This document shows, in pieces, positions 609-24,438 of a stretch of DNA of 32,000 nt. The notes under the pieces were generated by a model. It was given only the letters and a program-made list of their open reading frames with translations. It did not search any database and was not told the origin of the DNA. A program made the translations under genes and the position numbers. Position 1 is the stretch's first letter; every line of letters begins with the position of its first letter. The stretch comes from Candidatus Thorarchaeota archaeon. GTDB lineage: Archaea > Asgardarchaeota > Thorarchaeia > Thorarchaeales > Thorarchaeaceae. The stretch covers positions 60,001-92,000 of the forward strand of contig SHMX01000005.1 of NCBI GenBank assembly GCA_008080745.1. The letters are read 5' to 3'.

Positions 609-766
609 GTTCGTGGGACCTCCCGCGGACAGTTTAGCTCCGGTTTGATGTCGCCCTATTAAGATTGCTGGATTAGTCATGTATATGTTTTATTTTTGGT
701 GAAAGGTATTGTTTTTATTGGTATAGCAGATTAGTATATCATAGACAGTTTGAGGAGCTAAAAATT

Positions 767-1022: not shown

Positions 1023-1343
1023 TTGGTTACTGAAGTTCATAGTAAACGTATCTACACTTTCAAACCACGGTTTGGAGCTCAAGTGCATTTGACTGCTGCA
1101 GAGATTAGGTCCGCCATTCTGAATCTGGGGACCAAGATTAAAGGCGCAAAATACACAGTTGAAGTCTTGTCAGAAGATACAGATCAGATTGAGATTTACT
1201 GTATCGCACCCACAGGTGAACTGGTCTATGAGATGGACACGAAGATTATGTACAAGATTTTGAACTTTTGTGAAGCGAATAATCTCGACTTCAGTGTAGG
1301 TCCGCTTAAAGCAAAGACTCCTACAATGGACGAGTGGGAGTAG
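1023..1343 (+). CDS. Hypothetical protein, possibly a ferredoxin-like alpha/beta domain resembling the MscS cytoplasmic C-terminal domain
   Basis: 106-aa ORF with TTG start and GGGAG SD, 22 nt after the Lrp gene. The C-terminal half IEIYC...KILNFCEANNLDF resembles MscS/YnaI C-termini by eye. Confidence 0.6.
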   Translation: MVTEVHSKRIYTFKPRFGAQVHLTAAEIRSAILNLGTKIKGAKYTVEVLSEDTDQIEIYCIAPTGELVYEMDTKIMYKILNFCEANNLDFSVGPLKAKTPTMDEWE

Positions 1344-2435: not shown

Positions 2436-4310
2436 CTATCTTCTTGGTTTGTCATCCAACAATCCGAGTCTTCTCAGTGTGGTATCGAATGGAATGCCAG
2501 TTTCTATATCCCACCCACGATATTCATAGTATTCGTCAAGCATCTGATTGAGTTCTACCACTTCTCCCTTATTCGGCCCTAATGGTGCTGGCTCGTCCGT
2601 AAGTCGTTTTGGTAACTGATCATCTTTTCGTGATATTCCCAATCTGATATTGAACAGCCGATTGAGATTTACGATTCTCTCTCCTATGGTCTGTAGTTCT
2701 TCCCGGGTAAAAACAAGTCCATTATGTATTCGGAGGGCAAGTGCAACATCTTCGTAATAGAATTCTGGAGGGATCTGTGTTCCATATTTACAAAGCCCCA
2801 CACTCTCAATCATGACCATATAGTCTTCACATTCCTTTACCATGATTCCTTTGTAGGTTGGATTCAGACGTTCTGCCATCTCTGGCAAGTATTCCTCACC
2901 AAATCGTTCTCTTATCTCATCGTCAAATCCCGCCTCATCAAGCACAGGAAACGAATAGAGATGATCAGCTCCTCTTGCAGCTGTTACTGCAGCTAATCCC
3001 ATAGATTTCTGAGCTCGTGGTTCTTGTCCGGCTATCTCTTGCTTCTTCACGGTCATAACGAATTTCTCTGTTCCCTTTCCAATCTTTTGAGCTGCGCGAT
3101 AGCTTCCCTCGGCCAAGACATCACCAAAACCTTCACGCATTGCTATCATCTTGGTCAGTTTCACCACTGTTTCATGATTCCCCCACGTTAGATCTATCCC
3201 TCCTGTATCTTCAGCAGTTAATAGACCCTCATCCCATGCTTCCATTGCCCAGGATATAGTAGCACCAAGTGATATCGTATCCATTCCATATTGGTTTGCC
3301 AAATGATGCGAGTAGAGTACAGATTCGACATTATCGTTCCCACAACGGGAACCTAATGATGATTGCGACTCAAACTCAGGAGATCCTCCCTCATAGCAGT
3401 ATGGTCCTGTGGGTACAGCAGTAAACCTTCCACAGCGTTGTAGACAACTCCAATCTGCTCTTGGTTTCACAAGATAATCTTTCGTGATGGTTTCACCGCT
3501 GATTGCTTCATAGCCGTCAAATACTCCTTGACGCATATTGTAGCTTGGAAGTCTTCCAATATGATGCATAAGTTCTACAAGATTTGTTGTTCCATATCGC
3601 GCACGTTCGGGGGTGAAGGGATTAGCAAGCATACGTCTGTAGAACTCATCCATATGCCTAAGGTAATCTATTGGTTCAGCTACCTCGATTTTACCCGTTC
3701 CCCGTACTGAGATTGCTTTTATTTTCTTTGAACCCATAACAGCTCCAAGACCCGAACGAGCTGATGCTCTATCTCTGTCATTCATCACTGCTGCAAACCG
3801 AACTAGGTTCTCACCGGCCTGTCCTATTGCTAAGACGCGGCTCTTTCTACCATATTTCTCTCTAAGATAATCATCCGTTTCAAAGACATCACTACCCCAT
3901 ATATCCTCGGCACTTTCCAGGGTAACATCAGAATCTCGGATATTCAGATAGACTGGATCTTTTGATGCGCCTGTAAATAATACCGCATCATATCCTGCAA
4001 GCTTAATTTCAGTACCCCAAAAACCAGCAGAATGACTCTCACCCCAGACATTGGTCAATGGGGATAAGGCTGCGACCACTATTCTTGATGCTTGAGGAAA
4101 CATGGATCCTGTCAATAGACCGGTTGCTATACCCAATACATTCTTGGGCGATAGAGGATCGATATCCGGTGGAATCTCATCGTATAACACTTTAGAGAGA
4201 TATCCTGCACCTAGAAGATACTTTTTTACAATATCTTCAGGTATCGGTCGTTTCTCTACTTCTCCTTTGGTTAGGTTGACCCAAAGAATCTCGCCACCTA
4301 CTCCTTTCAT
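2436..4310 (-). CDS. aor: Tungsten-dependent aldehyde:ferredoxin oxidoreductase family protein (WOR/AOR), copy 1
   Basis: VNLTKG...YLLG, SPLT..WGES, IGQAGENLVRFA, R.G.GAVMGSKKIKAI, GMDTIS, RGADHL, YYEYRGWD..TG.P. ATG at 4310 with SD GGAGG; the ORF track uses TTG at 4316. Confidence 0.95.
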   Translation of the reverse strand: MKGVGGEILWVNLTKGEVEKRPIPEDIVKKYLLGAGYLSKVLYDEIPPDIDPLSPKNVLGIATGLLTGSMFPQASRIVVAALSPLTNVWGESHSAGFWGTEIKLAGYDAVLFTGASKDPVYLNIRDSDVTLESAEDIWGSDVFETDDYLREKYGRKSRVLAIGQAGENLVRFAAVMNDRDRASARSGLGAVMGSKKIKAISVRGTGKIEVAEPIDYLRHMDEFYRRMLANPFTPERARYGTTNLVELMHHIGRLPSYNMRQGVFDGYEAISGETITKDYLVKPRADWSCLQRCGRFTAVPTGPYCYEGGSPEFESQSSLGSRCGNDNVESVLYSHHLANQYGMDTISLGATISWAMEAWDEGLLTAEDTGGIDLTWGNHETVVKLTKMIAMREGFGDVLAEGSYRAAQKIGKGTEKFVMTVKKQEIAGQEPRAQKSMGLAAVTAARGADHLYSFPVLDEAGFDDEIRERFGEEYLPEMAERLNPTYKGIMVKECEDYMVMIESVGLCKYGTQIPPEFYYEDVALALRIHNGLVFTREELQTIGERIVNLNRLFNIRLGISRKDDQLPKRLTDEPAPLGPNKGEVVELNQMLDEYYEYRGWDIETGIPFDTTLRRLGLLDDKPRR

Positions 4311-4312
4311 TA

Positions 4313-4801
4313 TCAAGCATCCTCCTTATCATAGAGTATATCTTTATGTTTTTCATGCAGTTCAGAAATCCGCCCCTCCGGATCTTTTTCCTTCAGATCT
4401 TCTTCTGAGGTCAACCAAATTGCATTTACTGGGCATCTTTCGACACACGCACCGCATTGAATACATTTGAATGCCTTTCCTGTGTCTGGGTGAATCCTAA
4501 TCGCAAAGTATGGACAAGCTTCAACGCATGCTCCAGTTCCATCACACCTCTTGTTGTTAACAATTACAACCCCCTTAGAGGTTCGCATAATTGCCTCATT
4601 TGGGCATGCCGTAATACAGGGTGCATCTTCGCAGTTTCTACAAAAGAGTGGGAAGTCTAGTCCTGGTTCTATTCTAACAGCTCGTACCCGCGCTCTTTCT
4701 GGACTTATCACTTTGTAGAATTTCATGCTACATACATTCACACAGATCATACATCCAGTACATATATGGGGGTCACCAATAACAAATCTCAATTCGCTCA
4801 C
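4313..4801 (-). CDS. Four-cluster iron-sulfur electron-transfer subunit (DmsB/HybA/NarH-like) partnering WOR copy 1
   Basis: CTGCMICVNVC, CRNCEDAPCITACP, CDGTGACVEACP, KCIQCGACVERCP; its stop lies 2 nt before the WOR ATG. Confidence 0.92.
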   Translation of the reverse strand: MSELRFVIGDPHICTGCMICVNVCSMKFYKVISPERARVRAVRIEPGLDFPLFCRNCEDAPCITACPNEAIMRTSKGVVIVNNKRCDGTGACVEACPYFAIRIHPDTGKAFKCIQCGACVERCPVNAIWLTSEEDLKEKDPEGRISELHEKHKDILYDKEDA

Positions 4802-6172
4802 CTATCTCTTCTCCTCTATTGTTCGCCCTCCCATGGGCTGAAATATTCCATGTCCGGGTTTAACAAGAATTCTGCCCTCTTCATATACTGGTACACCCCT
4901 GACCAATGTCATAAGTGGCACTCCTTTCATCTTCAAACCCTCATAAAGTGTCCAATCGCATTTGGATAGCATCATCTCAGCCGTTATCTTTTCCTCCTTG
5001 GTCTGGTCTACAATAACGATATCCGCATCCGAACCAACCTGTAATATACCCTTTTTTGGGTAGAGCCCAAATATTTTGGCTGGGTTCTTTGACGCAACTT
5101 GGAGAAGTCTTGGGTATGAGATACGATTTTTATTCAGACCCTCTGAGAGCAAAACACGAAGAATCATCTGAATTCCATCTACCCCTGCCCACGCTTGACG
5201 AATGTCATCTCTCCCCTCTTCCTTTTTTTCTATTGGACAGGGTGCATGGTCGCTTACGGTGATATCAATCATCCCTCGAAGCAATGCGGACCATAATTCC
5301 GCCTTATCTTGTTTGGACCTTAGAGGCGGATTCATTTTGCTTTTGGGTCCGATTCGATTCATCTCATCACGGTGAAACATAAGATGATGGGGACATACTT
5401 CCGTTGTGACCATGACTCCATTCAACTTTCCTCTCTCCACCTCACGAATGCCTTCTCTTGTAGAGATATGAGCAATATGCAGATGTCCGCCAGTCTTCTC
5501 AGCAATTCCAATGACATGTCTAACTGCAAGCTGTTCTGCCAAGTTTGGTCTTGATAAGGAATGACTGATGGGGGCATCCCATTCATTGAGCATGTCTTTG
5601 CTAAACTCATCTAGAACTCCTTGATCTTCACAATGGATGGTCACATGTCCTCCATTTACGGATACTTCGCTGAGAAGACGCGATATCACACCGGAGTTAG
5701 TATAGAATGGTTCACAGGTAAATGCTTTGAATGACGCCGCTCCGCGAGCAATCATCTCGGGAACAATTGGGTAGTTCTCAGCATTCATCATTCCTACATT
5801 GAAAGCAAAATCGACAATGGATAGGTTGGACCCATCTGCAATCTTTTCCTGTAACATATCTGGGGTATCCATCTGACTTACGAGTGGCATATCTACTATT
5901 GTGGTTACTCCTCCAGCCGCAGCAGCAAAGGAACCGGGGGTAAACTCTTCATGATCAAGCATTCCTCTGTCATGGATATGTGCATGTCCATCAATCAATC
6001 CTGGCATCACAATTTTCTGTTTGGCATCAATTACTCTATCAGCATCAGGTAGATGATTGTCGGTAGCAATTATAGATATGATACCATCACGGATACCTAT
6101 CCCTGCCTGAACAAGGCCCGATTCGAATAGCAATCTTCCATTTCTAATAACGATATCCACGGTTCTGCTCAT
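4802..6172 (-). CDS. Cyclic amidohydrolase, allantoinase/dihydropyrimidinase-like
   Basis: Binuclear metal motifs DGHAHI, carbamylated Lys in FKAF, HCED, HIAHIS, EVCPHHL, KMNPPLR, SDHAP. It lacks the HxHxR(EPG) arginine of dihydroorotases, and AWAGVDG resembles allantoinase WGGI.G. Confidence 0.85.
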   Translation of the reverse strand: MSRTVDIVIRNGRLLFESGLVQAGIGIRDGIISIIATDNHLPDADRVIDAKQKIVMPGLIDGHAHIHDRGMLDHEEFTPGSFAAAAGGVTTIVDMPLVSQMDTPDMLQEKIADGSNLSIVDFAFNVGMMNAENYPIVPEMIARGAASFKAFTCEPFYTNSGVISRLLSEVSVNGGHVTIHCEDQGVLDEFSKDMLNEWDAPISHSLSRPNLAEQLAVRHVIGIAEKTGGHLHIAHISTREGIREVERGKLNGVMVTTEVCPHHLMFHRDEMNRIGPKSKMNPPLRSKQDKAELWSALLRGMIDITVSDHAPCPIEKKEEGRDDIRQAWAGVDGIQMILRVLLSEGLNKNRISYPRLLQVASKNPAKIFGLYPKKGILQVGSDADIVIVDQTKEEKITAEMMLSKCDWTLYEGLKMKGVPLMTLVRGVPVYEEGRILVKPGHGIFQPMGGRTIEEKR

Positions 6173-6187
6173 TCTAAGGTTTTCCTC

Positions 6188-6478
6188 CTATTGTGGATTT
6201 CCGCCGCCAATGGGGGGGAAAATTGCAACAGCATCCCCATCTGAAAGTTTTGTGTCATATCCATCTAGGGTTTCAATCCGTTTTCCGTTTATCATACAAG
6301 AGAAGAATCGTTTCAGTCTTGTAGTACCCTCTTGGAACACTGTTTCTTGAAATTCCTTGTCATATTGTTTCTTCAGCTTTATGAGAAGTTCTCCTACTGT
6401 GTCTGCTTCCATGTCAACCTTTCCTGTTCCTGCTACACTTCGAACAGTTGCAAAGAACTTCACCGTGACTTTAGCCAA
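6188..6478 (-). CDS. moaD: MoaD/ThiS/SAMP-type ubiquitin-like sulfur carrier with a 4-aa extension after the GG motif
   Basis: VTVKFFATVR...INGKRI...LSDGDAVAIFPPIGG-GNPQ*. Start is TTG at 6478 or at 6487. Confidence 0.9.
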   Translation of the reverse strand: MAKVTVKFFATVRSVAGTGKVDMEADTVGELLIKLKKQYDKEFQETVFQEGTTRLKRFFSCMINGKRIETLDGYDTKLSDGDAVAIFPPIGGGNPQ

Positions 6479-6504
6479 ATCCAACACCTACTAGACAAAG
6501 GCTT

Positions 6505-6518: not shown

Positions 6519-6602
6519 AGTTCGGAAATGTTATTGAAGTCGTTCCATAGACATATAGGGAATAATCTCTATTTGCTCTACTGTAATTCTGGAGTTGATA
6601 GC

Positions 6603-7496
6603 GTGGAGATAGTTGTCGTTGGTCATCTGAGCAGGGACCTTATCATTACCCCGGATTTGACAAGAGAGAGTCTCGGTGGTGCTCCAGCATATGCGATGAT
6701 TGCCCCTGCCATTGGTGCTCTCGGAGCGGGTATTGTGTCTCGAATAGGTTCAGACTTTGAACAGTCATATTTGAACGCACTTTACAGGTCTGGCCTTGAT
6801 CTCACGGGACTGAGAACTAGTCAAGACAAGTCCACCCGGTTTATCAATATCTACAACGCTGAGGGCGAGCGTACTCAACGAATAGAGTCAATCGCACCTC
6901 CTATTCATGGTTATGATTATTTACCAAAACATCTCTTGGCATCTATCTTTCATTTTTCTCCTCTTACCCCTGATGAGATTCATATCTCCTGTATTGAAAC
7001 TGCAAAGAGTTCGGGAGCATTGGTTTCTCTGGATGTTCAAGGATATTTACGGAATATTTCGGGGGAGAATGTCACATTATCTCGTTGGGAGTATCCCGAT
7101 GAAGTACTGAAATTTGTCGATATTGTCAAGGCCGAGGAATCCGAGGTGAAGTTCATATTTGAAGCGAAGACGGAGGTTTCAGCCGTATCTCGCATTTTGA
7201 GCCTGGGTCCTAGAGTTGTAATTATTACACGTAGCCAGAAAGGTTCAACTATCTACACCAGAAATAATCACGTTGATATACCACTAGTGTTGGCTGACAA
7301 GTTCATTGACAGTACAGGGTGTGGGGATGTCTATTCTATCGGATTTCTACTCTCTTACATGCGAACCGGAGATGTAAGTAAGGCTGGACTCTTTGGAGCA
7401 ACGTGTGCGTCTTTCAACTTGGAATCAATTGGCCCATATAATCCTCCCTCTATTGAACAGGTGGAGGAACGAATGCGAACCTATCTCCATGGCTGA
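6603..7496 (+). CDS. PfkB/ribokinase family carbohydrate or nucleoside kinase
   Basis: VVVGHLSRD, GGAPAYA, G.VSRIGSDF, VIITRSQKGS, DSTGCGDVY (PfkB signature variant). GTG at 6603 follows a GGAG SD; the ORF track starts at 6528. Confidence 0.88.
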   Translation: MEIVVVGHLSRDLIITPDLTRESLGGAPAYAMIAPAIGALGAGIVSRIGSDFEQSYLNALYRSGLDLTGLRTSQDKSTRFINIYNAEGERTQRIESIAPPIHGYDYLPKHLLASIFHFSPLTPDEIHISCIETAKSSGALVSLDVQGYLRNISGENVTLSRWEYPDEVLKFVDIVKAEESEVKFIFEAKTEVSAVSRILSLGPRVVIITRSQKGSTIYTRNNHVDIPLVLADKFIDSTGCGDVYSIGFLLSYMRTGDVSKAGLFGATCASFNLESIGPYNPPSIEQVEERMRTYLHG

Positions 7497-7638: not shown

Positions 7639-10407
7639 GTGTTGTTGGTGCTACGGAGTAAAGGTGTAGTTATACTCATTATTCTTGTTTCAGCTCTTTT
7701 CTTGTTTCTATCAATAGTTGGGAATAACTGTGATAATTCAATATATTCTTCAGAAGACATTTCTGAAACTGATTCGTTTCCCATGAAACTGAACCATCCA
7801 AGTTGGTACACTGATGAAGATTTTGATAATATGACCGCTCCAATATGTGATATGTCCGGTAATACTTTGGATGCCAGTGACGATGATTGGCCAACTTATG
7901 ATGCTATATTTACCTACTTCTACAATAATCAAAAGCATTTTGCCTTTATTTCTATGGCATGGGATGGACAAGACCTCTATTTCTATATAAGTATAAATGA
8001 TCCGAATAATTTGGAAACTGATACGGGATTTATGTTTGCTATCTTTATTCAATTTCCCGATCTATCTACAGACGATTTCTATATTGAGGTTACCGATTTC
8101 GAGAATGGTATATACAATACTGGAGGTATAAGTTCGGATGAAATTACATACGATAAGGATACAGGGAATCCAAGGATTGAATGTGAATATGATTTGAGCC
8201 CCTCTATCGTTGCTGGAACTGATTTGGGAATTTGTTTCTATTATCACGACTATGAATCAGATATTATAGACACATTTCCTATGTACTATGATGGAGGAAC
8301 AGAACCGGATCAATCGTATGGTACAGAATGGGCGCAATTACATTTGTTAGATGACACAGAGAGCCCACAAGTGGCACTGCAAGAACCTACCACCGAGGGG
8401 AACTACAATTATACATACGACACTCGCGAAATTGAATGGACTGCTTCAGATAATTATGCTATCGACCACTTTGATATCTTGAACAATAACAGTCTCCTTC
8501 AAGCGGGACTATCATCTGGTATACGGAGTTATAACATACCCGATTTGGGAGAGGGCGTACATAACATCACAGTAATTGTTTATGATACAAGAGATAATTG
8601 GGATACTAGTTATTTTTGGTTGGTTGTTGACAAAACCTCTCCAATTATGGATATAATCAGTCCTGTGAATTTATTCAATTGCACCTCACAATACGAATGG
8701 TTGAATTGGTCGGTAAGTGATAGTCTAACTTGGGTAGATTCGATATTTGTTTTTGATAATGAAACCAATGTTTCGGGTCAATTATCTGGAGATGTAACTT
8801 CATTTGAGTTGAGTCTTAGTCAAGGTCTTCATAATATCACAATAGTCGCTTATGATGTAGTTGGTAATATGGATACAGATACCATTTGGATTCGACGAGA
8901 TGGAATCACTCCCAATATTGAATTTCTTACTCCGGTGGAATTCGCATATCTTGATAGTTCTGAGGTTACTGTTTCTTGGATCGTGAACGATTCTAATCCC
9001 AGTTCTGATATTTATAGGACTCTTGTCTATCTTGATGAGCTTTTAAATAAAAGCAAACTTGGTATTATCTCGGAGGTTGATTGGCTATTATTTGAGGGTG
9101 AACATAATGTGACTATAGTTGTTGAGGATTATGCTGGAAATATTGAATCTTCAACCATTATGTTCTATGTAGATTTAAGCAATCCAGATATACAAATTAT
9201 AAAACCCTCTGCTGATATATATCTTTCAAATTCGTCTTATTCATTCATAATTGAATGGACTGCTTCGGATAATGTAGCTATTGACTACTTTGAACTATGG
9301 ATCGGAAGTACTTCCTATATTTTCGAATCAGATGTTCGCATGTATGAACCAGCGACTATAACATCAACGACCGCCTACACATTGAAGATCTTTGATAAAG
9401 CTGGTCATGTTGATTCAGATGGATTTGTTGTGTATTTTGATTCTTCTGGAGATACTTCTCCTCCCTTGCTATCAATTGAAAACCCTGTAAACGAAACCTA
9501 TTGTAATAGTGATGTTCTACTTAGTTGGGTTGCGAGTGATGCAGAATGCGAGATACGATATGTGAACATTAGCTTAGATGGTACTCTAATTCATTCAACA
9601 ACTGAATCTAGTGGTTCATATACTCTTGAATTTGAAGAAGAAGGAGTTCACAATCTATTTGTTATCACATGTAATGATATTGGACTAACAAAGAATAGAA
9701 GTATAGTCATTTTCTATGATATAACCCCTCCAACGATTACTATCCAATCTCCGAACAACAACCAGATTTTGATAAATTCCAATTTTCTAGTCACATGGAT
9801 AGGTGATGATGAAGGAATTATTGGCTCAATAGATTACTATGAAATTTTTCTTGGTTCTTTATCTCTTCGTCAGACAGAAAGTAACACTTACGCTTTTTCC
9901 GACATTTCCGATGGAGAATACTCTATTCGTGTAATTATTCATGATAAAGCAGGAAATATCGCTGAAGACTCTGTTACTATATGGGTGGATGTGGGTACAC
10001 CGACTCTCAGTCTTGTTAACCCAGCTAATTCTTTCACCCACAAAAAATCTGATGGAAACCTTATCCGGATTTCTTGTTTGGCTCAAGATAGTGCATCGGT
10101 ATCTTCTGTTGTCTTATATTTGACTGGGATTGATAATGAATATTCAAAAACATTGAATTTTTCATTTAATCCATCCACTGGTCATTGGGAAGTAACTTGG
10201 GACATCACAGAGGTTGAATATGGTTTATATTATCTGAATGTAACTGTACATGATTTGGCAGGCCATTCGAATTCGATAATTATAACTTCTGAATTAGTAC
10301 CTCCTACTCCTCTTGAGATACTGAAGGCAAATGCATTTTTCTTTACAGTAATCGGAGGCAGTGTCACGGTAATCGGTTTCATATTTAAGAGAACCCGAAA
10401 AGAGTAA
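7639..10407 (+). CDS. Membrane-anchored surface glycoprotein: signal/TM, DOMON/CBM9-like domain, 7 Ig-like repeats, C-terminal TM plus basic tail
   Basis: Hydrophobic N-terminus; AWDGQDLYFYISIND (DOMON/CBM9-like); seven roughly 90-aa repeats D.t.P.i.i..P...W..sD...G.h.i.i...D.aGn; about 18 NxS/T sequons by manual count; C-terminal FFFTVIGGSVTVIGFIF-KRTRKE. Confidence 0.85.
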   Translation: MLLVLRSKGVVILIILVSALFLFLSIVGNNCDNSIYSSEDISETDSFPMKLNHPSWYTDEDFDNMTAPICDMSGNTLDASDDDWPTYDAIFTYFYNNQKHFAFISMAWDGQDLYFYISINDPNNLETDTGFMFAIFIQFPDLSTDDFYIEVTDFENGIYNTGGISSDEITYDKDTGNPRIECEYDLSPSIVAGTDLGICFYYHDYESDIIDTFPMYYDGGTEPDQSYGTEWAQLHLLDDTESPQVALQEPTTEGNYNYTYDTREIEWTASDNYAIDHFDILNNNSLLQAGLSSGIRSYNIPDLGEGVHNITVIVYDTRDNWDTSYFWLVVDKTSPIMDIISPVNLFNCTSQYEWLNWSVSDSLTWVDSIFVFDNETNVSGQLSGDVTSFELSLSQGLHNITIVAYDVVGNMDTDTIWIRRDGITPNIEFLTPVEFAYLDSSEVTVSWIVNDSNPSSDIYRTLVYLDELLNKSKLGIISEVDWLLFEGEHNVTIVVEDYAGNIESSTIMFYVDLSNPDIQIIKPSADIYLSNSSYSFIIEWTASDNVAIDYFELWIGSTSYIFESDVRMYEPATITSTTAYTLKIFDKAGHVDSDGFVVYFDSSGDTSPPLLSIENPVNETYCNSDVLLSWVASDAECEIRYVNISLDGTLIHSTTESSGSYTLEFEEEGVHNLFVITCNDIGLTKNRSIVIFYDITPPTITIQSPNNNQILINSNFLVTWIGDDEGIIGSIDYYEIFLGSLSLRQTESNTYAFSDISDGEYSIRVIIHDKAGNIAEDSVTIWVDVGTPTLSLVNPANSFTHKKSDGNLIRISCLAQDSASVSSVVLYLTGIDNEYSKTLNFSFNPSTGHWEVTWDITEVEYGLYYLNVTVHDLAGHSNSIIITSELVPPTPLEILKANAFFFTVIGGSVTVIGFIFKRTRKE

Positions 10408-10486: not shown

Positions 10487-11680
10487 GTGACTGTAATGTT
10501 CGAAGATCTCGACCCACTTATGGAAGACGTTGGAATTGACGCATTGGTTTGTGAAGGAAATGCCTTTGAGGTTCCTGATATTGTCTGGCTGACTGGATTT
10601 CGCTCGACAGACTCAGTGATATATTTCAAAAACCAAGGTGAAAAGGGGCTGATTGCAACAGGGTATAATACCCTCGACCGTGCAAAAAAGGAGAGTTCGG
10701 TTACAGAATACCATGATCTGACTCCAATTTACAAAGATCTAAGACGAGAGAAAAAACGAGCCTATGAACATCCAGATGTCATCTATGGAGAGATTCTCAC
10801 TAGCCATTTCTCAGGTACGGTGATAGGTGTGCCAGACCACCTACCCGCAAGAGTACTTGTGGCTATTCAGCAACTTGGATATGACGTAAAAGTCGTTCCA
10901 AAACTTGTGAATAAGGCTCGTGCCACTAAAACAAAAGAAGAGATTGAAATCATCAGAAAGGCTGGTCATGCTACAACCTCAGCTATCAAGCGTGTTGTTG
11001 AGATGATTAAAGATGCAGACGTGGGTGAGAAGGACTCGCTCGTTCTTGATGGCACTCCTCTGACAGTTGGTCGAATCAAACTGGCCTTGGAACACTTCTT
11101 ACTCGATCAAGGTGCCGAGTCTGCAGAAGATGCAATTGTTGCCGTTGGTGACAAGGGGTTTGACTGGCACTATCTTGGAAAGTCCGATGATCATCTCAAA
11201 GCAAATGTACCCATAATTATGGATGTCTTTCCTCGTCTGAAACATGAGCGGTATGTTGCGGACGTTACTCGTACCATTGTGAAGGGTCGGGTTGACAAAA
11301 CTCTTCAGAATATGTTTGACGCCGTACACAGTGCTCTTGCCGCTTCAATAGAGGCTCTAACAGATGGTGCGAAAATCGATGATGTGAATATGGCATGTTT
11401 CCAGACCCTAAAACGTCATGGATACGATTCTAGTAGGCTGAATCTTGATGCCGAAGAGGGTATGACTCATGGTCTCGGACACGGAATTGGTCTTGAGGTG
11501 CATGAAGAACCAAGTATGTATCGATATGAGGAACATTTTGAAGCTGGACATGTTGTGGCAATTGAACCTGGAGTATATCTGAAGGCAATTGGTGGTGTCC
11601 GTATAGAGAACGATTATGCAGTCACTAAGAATGGTGCAAAGCGCCTAACAACTGATTTGGAAGACCTGATCTTTGTATAA
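10487..11680 (+). CDS. Xaa-Pro aminopeptidase/prolidase (peptidase M24)
   Basis: Metal ligands in IIMDVFP, YVADVTRT, HGLGHGIGLEVHE, IEPGVY, GVRIEND. The start may be ATG at 10496 (GGTGA SD). Confidence 0.93.
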   Translation: MTVMFEDLDPLMEDVGIDALVCEGNAFEVPDIVWLTGFRSTDSVIYFKNQGEKGLIATGYNTLDRAKKESSVTEYHDLTPIYKDLRREKKRAYEHPDVIYGEILTSHFSGTVIGVPDHLPARVLVAIQQLGYDVKVVPKLVNKARATKTKEEIEIIRKAGHATTSAIKRVVEMIKDADVGEKDSLVLDGTPLTVGRIKLALEHFLLDQGAESAEDAIVAVGDKGFDWHYLGKSDDHLKANVPIIMDVFPRLKHERYVADVTRTIVKGRVDKTLQNMFDAVHSALAASIEALTDGAKIDDVNMACFQTLKRHGYDSSRLNLDAEEGMTHGLGHGIGLEVHEEPSMYRYEEHFEAGHVVAIEPGVYLKAIGGVRIENDYAVTKNGAKRLTTDLEDLIFV

Positions 11681-11681
11681 T

Positions 11682-12776
11682 TCACTCATAACCTAATGCA
11701 GCAAAGGGGCAGACTGATATACACATACCGCAGGCCTGACAATCTTCAGAATTGATCTGCAATATTCCGTCTTCTTTGTTAGCTGTTATTGCGTCATATA
11801 CACACGATTTCACACAGAGACCACAGACAGTACATTTCTCGTGGTCAATACTAGGCGGGGGAGTAAGCTCTGTCAATTGTTTCAGAGCAATCCCTCTGAT
11901 TTCATTAATTGACCCGTAACCATGGGTGTCCAACCATTTCTTGGTTTCATCTACTATCTTTCCATAGATAGTATGGCCCTCAAGAATTGCAGCTGTACAG
12001 ACTTGAACCGCAGATGCTCCTGCCATTACAAACTCTATGACATCCTCTCCTGATGTGACCCCTCCAACTCCCATGATGGGTAAGTCTACTGCTTGTGCAA
12101 TATCTGCTACACATCTAAGAGCGATTGGCTTAAGTGCCGGACCGCTCAACCATCCCTGGCCTCCCTCTCCACCTAGCATAGGTCTTGCTGTTTCTATATC
12201 GATTCTAAGACAGGGGCCGTATGTGTTAATAGCAACAATTCCATCCACATGGGGCTCAAGTGATTTTGCTACTTTTGCAACATCTACTTTTGGACTAAGC
12301 TTGGCAAAAATAGGAATATTTACAGAATCTCGTAATGCTTTGGCAATTTCTACATGTCCTCCTACATAGTGTGTACTGAACTCTATTGCCTCTACACCTG
12401 CCCTTTCCATCTCTGGTGCAAGTGAAGAAACCTCTTCTGGTGTATATCCAACACTTGCTACTAACGTTAATCCCGAACTCTTTGCAATTGCATATTCTTT
12501 CTCAAACCATTGTTCAGGTGGCAATTCACTCCATAATTCGGTGTTTAGAATTCCTCTTCTGGAGGATACTCTTCCTCTTCCAATTGCAGCCATATTTGGT
12601 CTTGGAATCTGTGCCCCTTTGACACTGATAGTCTTTGCAACTAGACCACCAACTCCTCCTGTTGCCGCAGTGAGAAGTGTCATTCCATCGCGTGATGTGG
12701 GACCAGCTGCTGTGAGAATTGGATTTCGAAATTTCAATCCTGCAAATTCAACCTGAAGATCTGCCATACATACCAT
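11682..12776 (-). CDS. DHODH/dihydropyrimidine dehydrogenase PreA-like FMN protein with a C-terminal 2x[4Fe-4S] domain and a non-canonical active site
   Basis: NPILTAAGP, KTIS, LNTELWS, KLSP, INT, GWLSGPALKPIALR, GVGGV, GASAVQVCTA; C-terminal CTVCGLCVKSC and CQACGMCISVCP. The ELNxxCP loop is replaced by EFSTHY. Confidence 0.85.
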   Translation of the reverse strand: MVCMADLQVEFAGLKFRNPILTAAGPTSRDGMTLLTAATGGVGGLVAKTISVKGAQIPRPNMAAIGRGRVSSRRGILNTELWSELPPEQWFEKEYAIAKSSGLTLVASVGYTPEEVSSLAPEMERAGVEAIEFSTHYVGGHVEIAKALRDSVNIPIFAKLSPKVDVAKVAKSLEPHVDGIVAINTYGPCLRIDIETARPMLGGEGGQGWLSGPALKPIALRCVADIAQAVDLPIMGVGGVTSGEDVIEFVMAGASAVQVCTAAILEGHTIYGKIVDETKKWLDTHGYGSINEIRGIALKQLTELTPPPSIDHEKCTVCGLCVKSCVYDAITANKEDGILQINSEDCQACGMCISVCPFAALGYE

Positions 12777-12877: not shown

Positions 12878-13231
12878 ATGTCAATTTCTCAAAAAGCACA
12901 TATGACCATCGGTGATGTTGTCACCCGACTAAAGGATGATAGATTAACTCCATCCATGGTGAAGAAGTATATGCGTGTGATTGAGCGCGAAAGGTTCATT
13001 TGCGAAGAACGAAGGGGTGCCTATGACCCTCTCACACTTGACCTGCGAAATCTGCGTCATTTCTTAGAACAAAAGATTCTTCTACTTCTTGAGATGGAAG
13101 ATGTACATCAAGCTAATGAAACACCAGAAAAGATTCTGGAGAACTTCATTATAAACCGTATTTCTACTAAGACTTTAGCAAGAATACTGATACATGCCAG
13201 TCCTCGTGTGATTCAGAAGATGCTGGAATAA
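12878..13231 (+). CDS. Hypothetical all-alpha protein
   Basis: 117-aa ORF filling the gap between divergent and convergent neighbours, with a GGGGAG SD and a TATA-like element upstream. No motif recognised. Confidence 0.65.
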   Translation: MSISQKAHMTIGDVVTRLKDDRLTPSMVKKYMRVIERERFICEERRGAYDPLTLDLRNLRHFLEQKILLLLEMEDVHQANETPEKILENFIINRISTKTLARILIHASPRVIQKMLE

Positions 13232-13233
13232 AT

Positions 13234-15168
13234 CTATGCCAGCATTCCTCTCTGCTCAAGGTCCTTTACAACGAAGTCGAGATCCAGGTCCTCAAGAACT
13301 GATTTCTTAGGATAGCCTGTTTCTTTGTCACAACCTCGTAGTTCGTAATATTCGTCTAGCATATAGTCTAGATCTGGTAATCCGCCCTTAGATGGACCTG
13401 TCGGCATGGGTTCCTTCAGTAGCCTTCGTGGTAGAGTTTCATCTTTTCTCGTGATTCCAAGCCTGTGATTATACGCACGCCTGAGATGACTGATTCTGTC
13501 CGCAGATTGTCGTACGTATTTGACATCTCCCCATTCTACCATGCCTGTCAATGCAGGAAGCACATTTGCAAAGGTATCAAAGTAAAATATCGGGGGCCAC
13601 ATAGTTCCATACTTGCATATGACTGCTGAATCAGTTATTGCATAAAGGTTCTCCATGTCATAGACCACCAAGCCCTTGTGGACTGGCGACATGATCTCCT
13701 GAATCTCCTCTGCCTTGTCCTCTCCAAATCTGCGAATAGATATCTCGGGAAATCCTAATTCTTCGAGACTGGAGAGACTTCGTAAGTGATCAGCACCTCT
13801 TACGTTGGTTGCATAGGTAAGCCCTATTGATTGATGTGCACGAGGGTCTTGACCTGATGCCTCGAGTCCCTTTGAGTGAACTGCATATTTCCATGCTTCT
13901 CCGCCTATAATTTCTGCAGCTTTTCGAGTTCCGTGAGATAATAACTCGCCAATACCCTTCTCTCGTTTAGCAATTTTTTCAATTAGAGCGTTTATGGCAT
14001 CAACATTACCCCAGGACAAATCTAATCCATCAGTGTCCTTCTCGGTAAGTATTCCCTTCTCCCAGAGTTCCATTGCAAAGCTGATGGTCTTTCCACAAGA
14101 AATTGTATCCATCCCAAGTAGATCACAACGATGTCCTTGATGGAATACAGCTTCAATATCACTATTCATACAATTAGATCCGAAAGCCATGAGTGTTTCA
14201 TACTCGGGTCCACCAGCAGGGCCACCTGCGAATTTTCCCTCTTTAACACGATAGACGTACTTACAACCTATCCCACAGCCATGACAAGCTTCTTGGGCAA
14301 TTCGGTATTTTTCTGCAATAATCTCCGGGCCTATTTTTTCAGCCTCTTCAAAGAAGCCAGTCCAGTGATTCTTTGTCGGTAACCTTCCTATCTCGTTAAT
14401 CATGGCCACCAAGTCGGTGGTTCCATAATCTCTAAGGCTCCTGAGGAAATCTTTCCATAACGGGTCGTTTAGTCGCTCCATCTCTCTCTGGTTAGCCTCA
14501 AGATATGCATCCATATCATGTGCCTCCAGTCCAAGCGAGCCCCGTGCAGCAATCGCCTTTACATTCTTTGAACCCAATACTGTGCCGAGACCCGTTCTAC
14601 CTGCCGCACGATAGTAATCTACAATGATAGCTCCATAGAGTACCCCATTCTCACCTGCAGGACCTATAGTTGCAGTTTCTATAGCTGGGTCTCTATGCTC
14701 CTCTCTAATCATATCTGTTGTTTCATCAGTTTCTCGTCCCCATAATCTAGAAGCGTCACGAAGTTCCGCTTTTCCATCATTTAACCAGAGATAGACTGGT
14801 TTGGGCGATTTACCATTAAAAATGACAAAGTCGAATCCCGCATATTTAATCTCGGGACCCAGGAAGCCGCCAACATGACTCTCCGCCCAAATTCCAGTTA
14901 GAGGGCTTTTTCCTGAAAACATCATTCTTCCTGAGGGTGAAAACATTACACCTGTAAGAGGGCCTGTACCGACGATGACTATATTTTCTGGTGAAAGTGG
15001 GTCTGTATCGGGACCAGTTCTATCCCACAGAATCTTTGATGATATACCAGTTCCTCCAAGATAGAGTCTAGCCCATTCTTTCTCCATCTCCTTTTTGTGA
15101 ACCTTTCCTAGGGTAAGATCCACATCTAGATAGTATCCTGCATAACCTTTGTATGGAAAATCAGTCAT
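13234..15168 (-). CDS. aor: Tungsten-dependent aldehyde:ferredoxin oxidoreductase family protein (WOR/AOR), copy 2
   Basis: GYAGYYLDVDLT, GKSPLTG, IGPAGENGV, GSKNVKAI, CHGCGIGC, GPEYET, DLLGMDTIS, RGADHL, DSAVIC, YYELRG.D..TG.P. Confidence 0.95.
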   Translation of the reverse strand: MTDFPYKGYAGYYLDVDLTLGKVHKKEMEKEWARLYLGGTGISSKILWDRTGPDTDPLSPENIVIVGTGPLTGVMFSPSGRMMFSGKSPLTGIWAESHVGGFLGPEIKYAGFDFVIFNGKSPKPVYLWLNDGKAELRDASRLWGRETDETTDMIREEHRDPAIETATIGPAGENGVLYGAIIVDYYRAAGRTGLGTVLGSKNVKAIAARGSLGLEAHDMDAYLEANQREMERLNDPLWKDFLRSLRDYGTTDLVAMINEIGRLPTKNHWTGFFEEAEKIGPEIIAEKYRIAQEACHGCGIGCKYVYRVKEGKFAGGPAGGPEYETLMAFGSNCMNSDIEAVFHQGHRCDLLGMDTISCGKTISFAMELWEKGILTEKDTDGLDLSWGNVDAINALIEKIAKREKGIGELLSHGTRKAAEIIGGEAWKYAVHSKGLEASGQDPRAHQSIGLTYATNVRGADHLRSLSSLEELGFPEISIRRFGEDKAEEIQEIMSPVHKGLVVYDMENLYAITDSAVICKYGTMWPPIFYFDTFANVLPALTGMVEWGDVKYVRQSADRISHLRRAYNHRLGITRKDETLPRRLLKEPMPTGPSKGGLPDLDYMLDEYYELRGCDKETGYPKKSVLEDLDLDFVVKDLEQRGMLA

Positions 15169-15650
15169 TATTCGCTTCCCTCCTGAATACCAACTTTAGT
15201 TGATACCTGCTTCATCCCAATCTGCCTTTCTAAATTTCCCTCTCCTTCAGTTTCCAGTCGGATAACACCATACTCACATGCTTTTATGCAGGCCGGATCA
15301 CCATCGCACAGGTCGCACTTTATTGCTTTTCTGGACACAGGGTCTATTACAATTCCACCATAAATACAGGCAGAAACACAATTTCCACAACCTATGCAAA
15401 CATCATTATTCACTGTGAGCGATCCAATAGAATTGGGGATTATTGCATTAGTCGGACATGCGTCAGCACAAAGAGGCTCTTGGCACTGAAGGCAGACCAT
15501 TGGTATAATCAATCCCTTATGCTCATCTTTGAGAATCTGTATTCTTGCCCTAATAGGATTGAATGTGGATGTCTTTCTTGCTGAGCATGCTAGCTCACAA
15601 TTTCTACAACCCGTACAACTTTTTGCATCGATGACTAGGAGTTTTTTCAA
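15168..15650 (-). CDS. Four-cluster [4Fe-4S] electron-transfer subunit partnering WOR copy 2
   Basis: CTGCRNCELAC, CLQCQEPLCADACP, CIGCGNCVSAC, KCDLCDGDPACIKAC; TAATG overlap with the WOR start. Confidence 0.92.
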   Translation of the reverse strand: MKKLLVIDAKSCTGCRNCELACSARKTSTFNPIRARIQILKDEHKGLIIPMVCLQCQEPLCADACPTNAIIPNSIGSLTVNNDVCIGCGNCVSACIYGGIVIDPVSRKAIKCDLCDGDPACIKACEYGVIRLETEGEGNLERQIGMKQVSTKVGIQEGSE

Positions 15651-15829: not shown

Positions 15830-17626
15830 ATGATGAATAAAATTCACTCCATCGACTCTCCCAGAGATTCCTTACAAAGGTCTCAATTCCACAAAGTAGC
15901 AGATAGTATGCGGATTGCAATACTCGAGTTTAATCTGGATTTGGAATTGATATATGCTAATCCTGTCGCCAAGAGCATCTTTGGTTTAGATGATGTGGAT
16001 ATAACGAATCCCATTCCCTATTCTGATTTGGTTGTTTCAGAACAGGTGAAGATAATCAAGTCAGCATTTCAGAGATTTCTATCTGGAGAAAAACCTCGAT
16101 CAATGACAGTACGAGTCATTGCGAAACATGGTGTACATATACCCTTCCAAGTTATTCCCGAACTGGTTTTTCATAATGGAGCGCCTGTTGGTCTGGTTGT
16201 CTATGCCATGGACCTCTCTCGAAGGATTGTAATCAACCAACGGATTATGAACCGAGCAGAATACTTCAAGCTTATCGTAGAATATTCTAGCTTCACTGGT
16301 ATCCTAATTGTTGACGATCAATATCGTTTTGACTGGGTGAATGACAAGCTCTGTGACATAATTGGTTACACCCGAGAGGAATTGCTATCTATGGATTTCA
16401 GGGAGGTCTTACATCCTGATAGTCTGGATCTGACTGCTGATAGGTATAAGCGTCGCCAACAAGGTGAGACCCTACCAGCAACATATGAAATACAAGCAAT
16501 TTCTAAGGATGGGACTATCAAAGACCTGATGCTTACCAGTAGAGTCTACAAGAGTGGAGATGAACTCAAAAGTGTTGCACAGGTATTAGACGTTACTGAG
16601 CAAAATCGGCAGCGTCAAGCACTTGAAAACAGTGAACGGAGATACCGAACTCTTATCGAAACCATAATCGCTGGACTGGGTATTGATGATACTGATGGTA
16701 AGATAATCTATGCTAATGAAACTCTCAGTAAGATGACTGGATACTCTATTGACGAACTGGTTGGGATGAAGGGATCCTCCCTGGTCTATGAACTTACTCC
16801 TGATCGAATTCAAGCTAGACGAGATGGTAAATTCGAACAATATGAGGCACATCTTGTACACAAGTCGGGAGATCTAGTACCAGTAATTGTTTCAGCTTCA
16901 CCTCTCATGGATGCTAATGATGATTTTGAGGGTTCTTTTGCAATATTTACCGATATTTCAGAGCTCAAGTCTGTAGAAGATGAAGTACGCTTTCTACTTG
17001 ATTTGATTCTTCATGACATTGGAAATCAATTACAGTTGATAATTGCTGGTAGTGGTCTGATTGCGGAGGATGCTCCAGAGGATATTCTTCTCCGTGCGAA
17101 AGAGTACATTTTGGACGGGGCACAACGCAGTCTTGATTTAATACGAAAAGTACGTGGTGCTGAGAAGGCAAAAAGCGAAGTTCTGAAACCAGTTGATATA
17201 TCCGAGGTGATTGATGCAGAATCAATGCTGCTTTGGAAACAACACGGAGTTATGCCCGACATCGAGGGCATTCCTGAATCCCTTATGGTCTTAGCGGACA
17301 GTGCTGTTAATCATCTCATTTGGAACATTCTGGAAAATTCAGTCAAGCACAATCCTGACCCAGAACCGCAGGTGTGGATTCAGGGGGCAATTGAGGACGA
17401 CCATTTAATTTTAGAAATAGCCGATAATGGACCGGGATTGGATGAACGCAAGCGGGATCAGCTCTTTGATGTTCAAAGAAGGTATGGCGGGGTGGGCCTG
17501 CATTTGGTACGAAGACTTGCTAAGAAATACTGTACACTTCCTGAAGTCTGTGACCGGGTAGAAGAGAATCCTGAGGAAGGGCTTTGTATTAGAATACGGT
17601 TCCATATAGCGCAGGCTGAACCATAA
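15830..17626 (+). CDS. Cytoplasmic sensor histidine kinase with three PAS domains
   Basis: PAS starts YANPVAKSIFG, WVNDKLCDIIGYTREEL, YANETLSKMTGYSIDEL; H-box ILHDIGNQLQ; N-box NILENSVKH; DNGPGL; GGVGLHLV. No TM segment. Confidence 0.92.
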   Translation: MMNKIHSIDSPRDSLQRSQFHKVADSMRIAILEFNLDLELIYANPVAKSIFGLDDVDITNPIPYSDLVVSEQVKIIKSAFQRFLSGEKPRSMTVRVIAKHGVHIPFQVIPELVFHNGAPVGLVVYAMDLSRRIVINQRIMNRAEYFKLIVEYSSFTGILIVDDQYRFDWVNDKLCDIIGYTREELLSMDFREVLHPDSLDLTADRYKRRQQGETLPATYEIQAISKDGTIKDLMLTSRVYKSGDELKSVAQVLDVTEQNRQRQALENSERRYRTLIETIIAGLGIDDTDGKIIYANETLSKMTGYSIDELVGMKGSSLVYELTPDRIQARRDGKFEQYEAHLVHKSGDLVPVIVSASPLMDANDDFEGSFAIFTDISELKSVEDEVRFLLDLILHDIGNQLQLIIAGSGLIAEDAPEDILLRAKEYILDGAQRSLDLIRKVRGAEKAKSEVLKPVDISEVIDAESMLLWKQHGVMPDIEGIPESLMVLADSAVNHLIWNILENSVKHNPDPEPQVWIQGAIEDDHLILEIADNGPGLDERKRDQLFDVQRRYGGVGLHLVRRLAKKYCTLPEVCDRVEENPEEGLCIRIRFHIAQAEP

Positions 17627-17677
17627 TTGTTATGATGTACTTGTTCGTATAGAATACTCCTATTGGAGGTACATCCT

Positions 17678-19075
17678 TTGGAATCCTTTGAATCAATTCT
17701 TATCAAAAATGGCTACATTCTAACCCTTGACCCAAAACGCAGAATTCTCCCAAAGGGCAGCATTCGTATCGAAGGGAACAAGATTGTGGAGGTCTCAAAG
17801 ACACCCTCCAAACTGCCCCAGGCTGAATTAGAGATAGATGCCACTGGAAAGATTGTCATGCCGGGTCTAATTGACACCCATGTACATCTGGCACAGGCAT
17901 TGATTCGAGGATGTGCAGATGATGTATCACTTGTTGATTGGTTGAAAAACTATGTCTGGGTACTACAAGGAAATTTCACTCATGAGGATGGAAAGGTTTC
18001 CGCTGAACTATGTATGGCTGAGATGATTCGGACGGGAACTACAGGATTTATTGAATGCATGATCCACTCTCGTTATGGATTTGATGGAATTGCAGAGTCT
18101 GTTGAGAATATTGGTATGCGAGCTGCTCTTTCGAAAATAATCATGGATTCCACTGGTTATGCAGATAGCCCTGATATTATGTACCCTGGAATGATTGAAT
18201 CTGCAGATGCTTGTCTAGCAGAAACTGAATCCATGCTAAAGAAATGGCAATGGGCGGCGCATGGACGTATCCAAGTCTGGTATGGTCTGCGGTCTCTTGG
18301 TGCTGTCACTCCTGATTTGTTCAAGACCGTCGTGGGGCTAGCTGATGAACACGATACCCGAATGACCATGCATCTTGGAGAAGTACAGGATGATGTCAGA
18401 TATGTACGGGAGAATCACAATACAAATCTTGTTGGTTTTGCTCGAAAGATGGGTTTACTGGGTGAGAATATGGTGTTTGCTCATGGTATTCACTTTGAGG
18501 ATGAAGAGATTCAGGAACTTGCTGCTACCCAGTCCAATATCTCTCATTGTCCCGCAAGTAACATGAAATTGGCCTCTGGATTTGCAAAGATTCCTACGAT
18601 GTTAGAATATGGTGTTCCGGTTTCGCTGGGTTGTGATGGTGGACCTAGTAACAATGCCTATGATATGATTCGAGAGATGCGCTTGGCTGCTCTTATTCAC
18701 AAACCCCATGCAAATGATCCAACAGTAGTCAGTGCAGAAGAAGTAATCGAGATGGCAACTTTAGGTGGAGCAAAAGCATTGGGTCTTGGTGACAAACTTG
18801 GTTCTCTGGAAACGGGAAAATTTGCTGATCTGATTCTGGTTGATATGCACAGACTGAATCTCACACCAAAAACCAATCCTGTATCTAACCTTGTCTATGC
18901 TGGTTCTGGCTATGATGTCGATACGGTCATTGTTAATGGACGGATACTCTTGCAAGAGAAAAAACATCTGACAGTAGATATAGAGGAAGTTATGGTTAGA
19001 GCAGAGAAACATGCTGCAGAGTTAGTAGAGCGAGCTGGAGTGGAGATAGTACCAAAATGGCCCATCTCCAACTAA
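17678..19075 (+). CDS. Metal-dependent amidohydrolase/deaminase of the TRZ/ATZ-MTA/SAH deaminase-SsnA family
   Basis: MPGLIDTHVHLAQ, MHLGE, HCPASNMKLASG, LGCDGGPSNN, GSLETGKFADL. TTG at 17678 follows GGAGGT; the ORF track starts at 17663. Confidence 0.9.
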   Translation: MESFESILIKNGYILTLDPKRRILPKGSIRIEGNKIVEVSKTPSKLPQAELEIDATGKIVMPGLIDTHVHLAQALIRGCADDVSLVDWLKNYVWVLQGNFTHEDGKVSAELCMAEMIRTGTTGFIECMIHSRYGFDGIAESVENIGMRAALSKIIMDSTGYADSPDIMYPGMIESADACLAETESMLKKWQWAAHGRIQVWYGLRSLGAVTPDLFKTVVGLADEHDTRMTMHLGEVQDDVRYVRENHNTNLVGFARKMGLLGENMVFAHGIHFEDEEIQELAATQSNISHCPASNMKLASGFAKIPTMLEYGVPVSLGCDGGPSNNAYDMIREMRLAALIHKPHANDPTVVSAEEVIEMATLGGAKALGLGDKLGSLETGKFADLILVDMHRLNLTPKTNPVSNLVYAGSGYDVDTVIVNGRILLQEKKHLTVDIEEVMVRAEKHAAELVERAGVEIVPKWPISN

Positions 19076-23284: not shown

Positions 23285-23385
23285 TCTCCATGTTGAATCC
23301 TGAACTACTCCCTGATATGGTTTGCTCCCAAGCTATCAGAATAACTCTTCATGATTCTAACATCTAAGAAATCTATTATATTGGA

Positions 23386-24384: not shown

Positions 24385-24438
24385 ATCATATTGTTAGTTC
24401 ATATGCTTTATCAGGAAGGATGTTCACTTCTTTGTCGT

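Follow-up and report, generated by a model that had tools for sequence, protein, structure and literature searches.

What can an enzyme with the fold of the dihydroorotate dehydrogenases (DHODH) and dihydropyrimidine dehydrogenases (DPD) be doing when the catalytic cysteine that defines both of them is missing? The question is raised by a reverse-strand gene at 11682..12776 in a 32,000-nucleotide stretch of contig SHMX01000005.1 from a Candidatus Thorarchaeota archaeon; the whole of this stretch is called the window below, and the genome to which it belongs (3.16 Mb, 98% complete) the host genome. A sequence-only reading had taken the product for a PreA/DHODH-like flavoprotein of an uncharacterised subfamily, acting on a different heterocyclic substrate. 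We consider it probable that the gene encodes an archaeal reductase of the dehydrogenase X1/UacX clade which, fed by ferredoxin or by a neighbouring oxidoreductase of the aldehyde:ferredoxin oxidoreductase (AOR) family, dearomatises an oxopurine with a proton from its Ser-Thr-His-Tyr (STHY) loop, the ring then being opened by amidohydrolases of the surrounding gene island. The gene and the two elements in it that matter most are:

11682..12776, minus strand: gene for the UacX-type (dehydrogenase X1) FMN / 2x[4Fe-4S] reductase; open reading frame of 364 amino acids (aa), 361 aa from the probable start ATG at 12767
11694..11852, minus strand: C-terminal ferredoxin domain of the reductase, residues 309-361, with two CxxCxxCxxxC motifs for 2x[4Fe-4S]
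12366..12383, minus strand: E132-F-S-T-H-Y137 motif, after barrel strand beta4, standing in for the E-L-N-x-S-C-P-H catalytic loop

The protein is an FMN barrel with its own iron-sulphur tail

Translation probably begins at the second in-frame ATG (12767), because both the homologues and an identical database protein of 361 aa begin with MADL. From there the reductase consists of a PF01180 barrel (DHO_dh, 1.7e-34) followed by the two 4Fe-4S motifs of residues 309-361, and neither its Pfam matches nor its structural model contains an FAD/NAD(P)H domain. The FMN-site residues K48, K159 and G238-G239 are kept throughout the family, and all eight cluster cysteines of the tail are invariant among homologues; the intact FMN motifs and fused 2x[4Fe-4S] tail of the sequence-only reading are thus both confirmed. 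An AlphaFold2 model built from a 107-sequence alignment (pLDDT 97.2, pTM 0.94) found its best structural match in pig DPD, with the FMN domain and the C-terminal ferredoxin domain (TMq 0.80), and its next best in class 1 DHODHs, with a TMq of 0.72 against the class 1B PyrD structure 1EP3. NCBIfam has no model for this family: each match lay under its cut-off, the top two being PreA (195 bits, cut-off 335) and class 1B PyrD (179 bits, cut-off 270).

A short loop without cysteine replaces the canonical catalytic loop

The canonical loop, ELNxxCP(N/H), had been reported as giving way in this protein to a much shorter EFSTHY, and the replacement proved to be a property of the whole family. The motif E[FY]STHY is carried by all of the 120 best database homologues (120/120), and E132, S134, H136 and Y137 are invariant in 33 of 33 family members, archaeal and bacterial. 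In a profile-profile alignment of 17 STHY-type with 19 Cys-type PreA-like proteins, S134 falls on the Asn of E-L-N and H136 on the His of C-P-H, the S-C-P between them is deleted, and nine more residues beyond it are missing, which makes the STHY loop 12 residues shorter; an HMMER alignment to pig DPD agrees with this result. The loop that joins strand beta4 (130-134) to helix alpha4 (which begins at 141) accordingly has six residues, against ~18 in the canonical enzymes. A local artefact was ruled out as the source of the loop loss, which is invariant in >200 homologues. Nor does another cysteine take the catalytic position, as no other invariant barrel cysteine was found across the aligned family members, including those of the 33-member comparison.

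The rest of the pocket differs as well. Of the three Asn residues that bind the pyrimidine in canonical enzymes, N78 and N184 are retained and the third, the Asn of ELN, is Ser134, and the family has the invariant aromatic residues W82, Y111 and W209 where the canonical counterparts are Leu, a small residue and Gly, respectively. The substrate site of the reductase is therefore remodelled: it is more open and more aromatic, and it has no Cys acid. With one pyrimidine Asn lost, W82, Y111, Y137 and W209 gained, and a PyrD-PyrK pair elsewhere in the genome, dihydroorotate and uracil are unlikely substrates, which agrees with the different substrate proposed before. That pair consists of a canonical PyrD with FELNLSCPH and a PyrK gene directly after it, on another contig; its presence rules out the reductase as the biosynthetic PyrD of the host. 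The lack of an adjacent GltD/PreT or PyrK subunit was likewise borne out: the window contains no such gene, and the sole Fer4_20 (GltD/PreT-like) gene of the host genome sits on a third contig, apart from both the reductase and PyrD.

The STHY proteins form one clade in archaea and Bacillota

Close homologues, 61-83% identical to the window protein, come from Promethearchaeota (Loki), Thor- and Hodarchaeota, and those with 50-55% identity from Baldr-, Heimdall-, Hermod- and Hadarchaeota, Korarchaeia, Bathyarchaeia, Nitrososphaeria and one metagenome-assembled genome of the Bacillota. A profile of the STHY type matched at >478 bits in 18 of 401 sampled Bacillota species genomes, and ELSTHY was present in each of the 17 sequences read (17/17). 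The representative library contained a wide radiation of Cys-less proteins, with loops of the STHY type and of an 'E-[LV]-V-S-Y' type, beside the classical N-x-S-C-P type. In a maximum-likelihood tree of 47 sequences the Cys-less clade stood against the Cys-type PreA-like proteins and PyrD with a support of 99/94 and divided into a VSY group and an STHY group, the latter (100/98) holding the window protein together with the Bacillota proteins.

Three sets could be recognised within the STHY group, namely the proteins of bacterial uricolytic clusters, an archaeal set adjacent to SsnA-like genes (locus L011 and the Hadarchaea, with or without xanthine dehydrogenase, XDH), and a set linked to AOR genes. 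The last is monophyletic (99/99) and contains every protein with an adjoining AOR gene, including the window protein; because relatedness and shared neighbourhood are not independent, this clustering indicates vertical coherence, not co-evolution. When 15 AOR-linked members were compared with 18 members linked to XDH or uricolytic genes, the candidate active-site residues were all identical and only four positions were group-specific (F133L, L148A, R149K and V177A), an argument that both groups act on the same substrate or on closely similar ones.

Neighbours of another kind were seen beside two members of the Cys-less clade. A VSY-type member in an Asgard-like contig (L015, P0138) adjoins nitroreductase-CofD-CofC genes, and an STHY-type member (L013, P0126) adjoins genes for an F420 ligase, an F420 oxidoreductase and a luciferase-like protein, with a PIN gene also nearby; these are hints of an F420 link for some members of the clade.

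Bacterial members lie in uricolytic clusters at the position of UacX

Stretches of 20 kb around 20 Bacillota matches were searched with the uricolytic proteins of E. coli K-12 (taken from an annotated record) and with the window proteins. The STHY gene was the only DHO_dh (PF01180) homologue in each stretch, and its neighbours were homologues of XDH (often immediately upstream), SsnA, a TRZ/ATZ paralogue, HyuA, YgeW, YgeY, YgeX, YqeA and XanQ; at one locus (L147) the order is YgeY-YgeW-YqeA-YgeX-SsnA-STHY-XanQ-XdhA-HyuA. The STHY proteins of these uricolytic clusters are 46-50% identical to the window protein.

This clade, found with hyuA, ygeW, ygeY, ssnA and xdhABC, was delineated by Barba et al. 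(2013) as 'dehydrogenase X1' (PMC4016543). More recently, Li et al. (2025, Life Metab, PMC12507026) described UacX, a PF01180 'homolog of PydA' that replaces YgfK in C. difficile and to which they give the place held by the STHY gene in these clusters. In a coupled assay with UacX, SsnA and reduced methyl viologen, 2,8-dioxopurine yielded ureido products with an opened ring. The reduction of the ring by YgfK was detected only with SsnA coupling (PMC12507026), which fits a tight linkage of reductase and amidohydrolase. A preprint on the 2,8-dioxopurine pathway (bioRxiv 10.1101/2025.04.24.650524) deals with YgfK only and leaves the PF01180 enzyme unmentioned. The tree, the shared invariant residues and the gene context together place the window protein in the Cys-less X1/UacX clade. 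To call the subfamily uncharacterised was thus only partly right, because the family was delineated in 2013 and named in 2025, when one member was assayed; the description still suits the archaeal subclade linked to AOR, which, like catalysis without the Cys, is unstudied in the literature found. A literature search turned up nothing on the Cys-less site or the AOR-linked archaeal form, and one on Asgard, AOR, purine and amidohydrolase nothing relevant.

In archaea the reductase usually follows a polyferredoxin-AOR pair

The archaeal gene context was sampled in 80 related loci from species-representative genomes. In 65 of these an AOR-family gene lies upstream of the reductase on the same strand, preceded by the gene for a 160-aa polyferredoxin, and in 31 of the 65 AOR-bearing loci a gap of 6-116 bp, often one of 6-70 bp, separates AOR from reductase; where the pair is lacking (15 loci), the contig is in most cases cut. 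That the pair is a conserved neighbour had been missed by the sequence-only reading, which had proposed collecting E[FL]STHY homologues with their neighbourhoods; the survey has now yielded two kinds of context, AOR-linked and uricolytic. The features of the window that bear on the island are:

13234..15168, minus strand: AOR_a, AOR-family (tungsten-type) oxidoreductase, 644 aa; conserved upstream same-strand neighbour of the reductase
15168..15650, minus strand: Fer4_a, 160-aa polyferredoxin with 16 invariant Cys (4x[4Fe-4S]); overlaps the start of AOR_a
12878..13231, plus strand: orf117, no family match; between AOR_a and the reductase, on the opposite strand
17663..19075, plus strand: TRZ/ATZ-family amidohydrolase (deaminase/SsnA-like), 218 bits with the SsnA model, under cut-off; conserved island member
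15830..17626, plus strand: soluble PAS histidine kinase; conserved island member
10487..11680, plus strand: M24-family metallohydrolase, convergent with the reductase with 1 bp between the stop codons; conserved island member
6528..7496, plus strand: PfkB-family kinase; conserved island member
2436..6487, minus strand: second four-gene unit (MoaD/ThiS-like, cyclic amidohydrolase, Fer4_b, AOR_b)
6188-6487, minus strand: MoaD/ThiS-like gene of the second unit
4802-6172, minus strand: cyclic amidohydrolase of the HyuA/allantoinase/dihydroorotase type, second unit
4313-4801, minus strand: Fer4_b, second unit
2436-4316, minus strand: AOR_b, second unit
24391-25542: radical SAM gene, beside the PurB and ornithine transcarbamylase (OTCase)-fold genes

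The Loki/Thor island has the order TRZ/ATZ amidohydrolase; PAS kinase; Fer4_a-AOR_a-reductase; M24-PfkB; MoaD/ThiS-cyclic amidohydrolase-Fer4_b-AOR_b. The content of the window matches it exactly, with the addition of orf117 and of a gene for a 922-aa Ig-domain protein that is specific to the host genome. Both the TRZ/ATZ and the cyclic amidohydrolase are conserved island members among the 80 loci, and the HyuA-like enzyme is 28% identical to E. coli HyuA. AOR_a most closely resembles genuine aldehyde:ferredoxin oxidoreductases (9mqx, 1aor and 8c0z, the last being AorB), and the host genome has five AOR-family genes, two of them within the island.

SsnA-like genes lie beside the reductase in related Baldr-, Heimdall-, Hermod- and Hadarchaea loci. 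In a Baldrarchaeota relative the amidohydrolase, two genes upstream in the operon of the reductase, reaches 455.6 bits (SsnA cut-off 444), and at L011 an SsnA-like amidohydrolase (411 bits, under cut-off) is directly upstream of the reductase and the pterin enzyme is XDH, with XdhC and molybdenum-cofactor genes. Apart from a weak OTCase-like match, no homologue of YgeW, YgeX or YgeY was found in the window or the 80 related loci. At 21908-25542 of the window a genuine adenylosuccinate lyase gene (PurB, 463 bits) adjoins a divergent OTCase-fold gene and the radical SAM gene; the OTCase-fold gene (23386-24384) scores under all cut-offs and its product is 27% identical to YgeW over 156 aa.

An AOR gene was also met in bacteria. 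Clusters with YgeW, YgeY, HyuA, SsnA and YqeA in two Bacillota genomes (L158 and L160, in G212 and G054) carry a polyferredoxin and an AOR gene as well, so that the AOR association is not restricted to archaea; the DHO_dh protein of these clusters is of the Cys-less 'ELVSY' type. On the bacterial contig of L017 (P0127) a radical SAM gene stands between AOR and reductase, its sole family match being a weak one to TIGR04082 (SbtM thio(seleno)oxazole maturase; 82 bits, cut-off 350).

Some features of the window are more local. orf117 recurs in its slot, with 64% identity in the closest relative and as a weak match in two Thorarchaeota loci; other Thorarchaeota have there either nothing or a gene for a CLC channel. 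The 922-aa protein, with bacterial Ig-like domains (Big_7 and Big_13), is encoded at 7639-10407 on the plus strand between the PfkB and M24 genes in this genome only, and a GC content of 0.36 there, against ~0.43 around it, suggests that the gene was inserted locally into the conserved island. The island is flanked by an MvhD/FlpD-like gene (138-680, minus strand) and a conserved open reading frame of 106 aa without family match (1023-1343, plus strand), which flank the Loki/Thor islands too and are followed there by an AsnC regulator and a hydrogenase small-subunit gene.

Proposed function and competing explanations

Fold, cofactor sites, loop replacement, clade and neighbourhood are observed; family membership and neighbourhood allow a mechanism to be put forward, in which we infer what is reduced and where the electrons and the proton come from. 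Ferredoxin, or else the polyferredoxin that goes with the neighbouring AOR, would supply low-potential electrons, which would enter the reductase through its own two [4Fe-4S] clusters and pass to FMN, much as the sequence-only reading had supposed for ferredoxin- or WOR-derived electrons. The hydride of FMNH2 would then go to a ring of the oxopurine type, with 2,8-dioxopurine or a closely similar compound as the likeliest substrate, and the matching proton would be given by the short S-T-H-Y loop instead of the canonical Cys. Tyr137, assisted by His136, is the best candidate for this role, because the short loop is closed by a Tyr in the VSY as well as in the STHY subclade; only the latter has His136. 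The substitution of Ser, His or Tyr for Cys that was suggested earlier is a reasonable but unproven mechanism. The dearomatised ring would finally be opened by the amidohydrolases of the island, the TRZ/ATZ-SsnA-like and the HyuA-like enzyme.

The AOR may be an electron supplier in this scheme, or it may be a functional stand-in for XdhD. Enzymes of the xanthine-oxidase family hydroxylate both aldehydes and N-heterocycles, which makes a heterocycle role for an AOR-family enzyme chemically reasonable, but unproven. A bolder proposal, which we put forward only tentatively, is that a polyferredoxin and a tungsten-type AOR have replaced the XDH-type molybdoenzyme beside a UacX-type reductase in Asgard archaea, several other archaea and some Bacillota; the AOR would (de)hydroxylate the purine ring, wire electrons into the reductase, or do both, and the reductase would use a Tyr/His proton relay for the Cys acid.

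Several points weigh against the assignment to oxopurine reduction. What equates the STHY clade with UacX is the family and the position of the gene, not a direct alignment to the assayed C. difficile protein (Q181U4), and the placing of Tyr137 and His136 as a putative proton relay over FMN is drawn from residue conservation and not from the coordinates of the model. The whole 98%-complete host genome contains no XDH-family (PF02738) gene to make 2,8-dioxopurine, and no protein above the SsnA cut-off (444 bits), the best score being 218 bits; with no such protein and no YgeW/X/Y, the downstream pathway must differ, and so the substrate may differ too.

These last points lead directly to an explanation in which the chemistry is the same, a ferredoxin-fed FMN hydride transfer to a C=C or C=N bond of an N-heterocycle, and the physiological substrate is not an oxopurine but some other ring specific to the AOR-linked archaeal island, whether nucleobase-derived or of a pterin, hydantoin or pyrimidine type. 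The Asgard island, without true SsnA, YgeW/X/Y or XDH and with M24, PfkB and PAS kinase genes and two AOR modules, speaks for such a substrate, as do N78 and N184, the two Asn residues of the pyrimidine-binding three that the protein retains. The putative pocket residues are nevertheless the same as in members from bacterial uricolytic clusters, with the four group-specific positions all peripheral, and SsnA-like genes do stand beside the reductase in the Baldr-, Heimdall-, Hermod- and Hadarchaea loci; we therefore regard a substrate of this other kind as rather unlikely. The same pocket speaks against an enzyme outside any heterocycle pathway, that is, a reductase serving mainly as the flavin subunit for electron exit or entry in a three-subunit complex of polyferredoxin, AOR and flavoprotein, which would pass aldehyde-derived electrons to a small acceptor as AorC does in AorABC. 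The fixed order Fer4_a-AOR_a-reductase on one strand with its short gaps, the monophyly of the AOR-linked proteins, the closeness of AOR_a to genuine AORs including AorB, and the lack of amidohydrolase genes within 10 kb at some AOR-bearing loci (L017, L093 and L101) all fit such a complex. However, the active-site residues are the same in AOR-less members from XDH/uricolytic clusters, a substrate-type pocket is conserved with N78, N184 and K48, and the fold is a DHO_dh FMN barrel with a ferredoxin domain, not the FAD/NAD-binding fold of AorC, so that a subunit role of this kind appears improbable.

Least credible of all is that the protein is the catalytic subunit of an ordinary dihydroorotate or dihydropyrimidine dehydrogenase in which another residue serves as base. 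The best named matches are indeed PreA and class 1B PyrD, and the fold matches are DPD and DHODB, but the scores are far under the curated cut-offs, the protein has neither the Cys loop nor the ELN Asn, the window has no PreT/PyrK partner, a canonical PyrD-PyrK operon exists elsewhere in the genome, and the clade of the reductase is separate from the Cys-type enzymes.

Implications

Anaerobic breakdown of the purine ring was resolved only in 2025, in gut bacteria. The results given here extend the family of ring-reducing flavoenzymes deep into the archaea, including the Asgard relatives of eukaryotes, and bear on how Asgard archaea ferment nucleic-acid bases. As the whole family is without the Cys that defines DHODH and DPD, a different proton-transfer mechanism remains for description. 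The regular exchange of XDH for a tungsten-type AOR makes a concrete prediction for one AOR-family enzyme among many of unknown substrate; were the AOR to act on the purine ring, this would be the first N-heterocycle role for its family.

Comparison with known systems

With pig DPD (1H7W, 1GTE) or PreA and with class 1B PyrD the reductase has in common the fold, the FMN-binding Lys and Gly motifs and two substrate Asn residues, and with DPD/PreA also the C-terminal 2x[4Fe-4S] domain. It differs from them in having no acid of the Cys671 type, a loop 12 residues shorter, S134 in place of Asn668, the family-specific residues W82, Y111, H136, Y137 and W209, and no PreT/PyrK partner. Across the Cys-less clade a Tyr is the most broadly conserved residue of the loop, and for it old yellow enzyme may offer a parallel. 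In that enzyme, also an FMN TIM barrel but one from another TIM-barrel family, the carbon beside the hydride acceptor receives its proton from a Tyr; the comparison would be one of working principle only.

PydAc of Clostridium chromiireducens, a ferredoxin-dependent dihydropyrimidine dehydrogenase, is a DPD-type FMN enzyme without FAD/NADPH domains that takes electrons from reduced ferredoxin or methyl viologen via its own [4Fe-4S] clusters (PMC7332683). Unlike the window protein, PydAc reduces uracil and belongs to a Pyd cluster; the window protein for its part has no catalytic Cys loop, has lost one substrate Asn, and has an AOR and purine-type amidohydrolases for neighbours. The same step that we propose here, a reductive dearomatisation coupled to SsnA, is taken by YgfK (DOPOR), the NADPH:2,8-dioxopurine oxidoreductase of E. 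coli (bioRxiv 10.1101/2025.04.24.650524). YgfK gave no match to the window by tblastn and, unlike the reductase, is a protein of ~1030 aa (3.1-kb gene) and NAD(P)H-dependent.

The closest likeness is to UacX/dehydrogenase X1. In contrast to the UacX clusters, the upstream pterin enzyme here and in most archaeal relatives is an AOR with a four-cluster polyferredoxin and not XDH, the host genome has no XDH-family gene or true SsnA, and the window has no YgeW/X/Y. The reductase nevertheless consists, as UacX does, of a PF01180 FMN barrel and Fe-S domain(s) without an FAD/NAD(P)H domain; like the Bacillota proteins at the UacX position, which have an ELSTHY loop, it carries the same invariant residues and falls in the same supported clade; and the SsnA-like (TRZ/ATZ, under cut-off) and HyuA-like amidohydrolase genes near its own may correspond to ssnA and hyuA of the UacX clusters.

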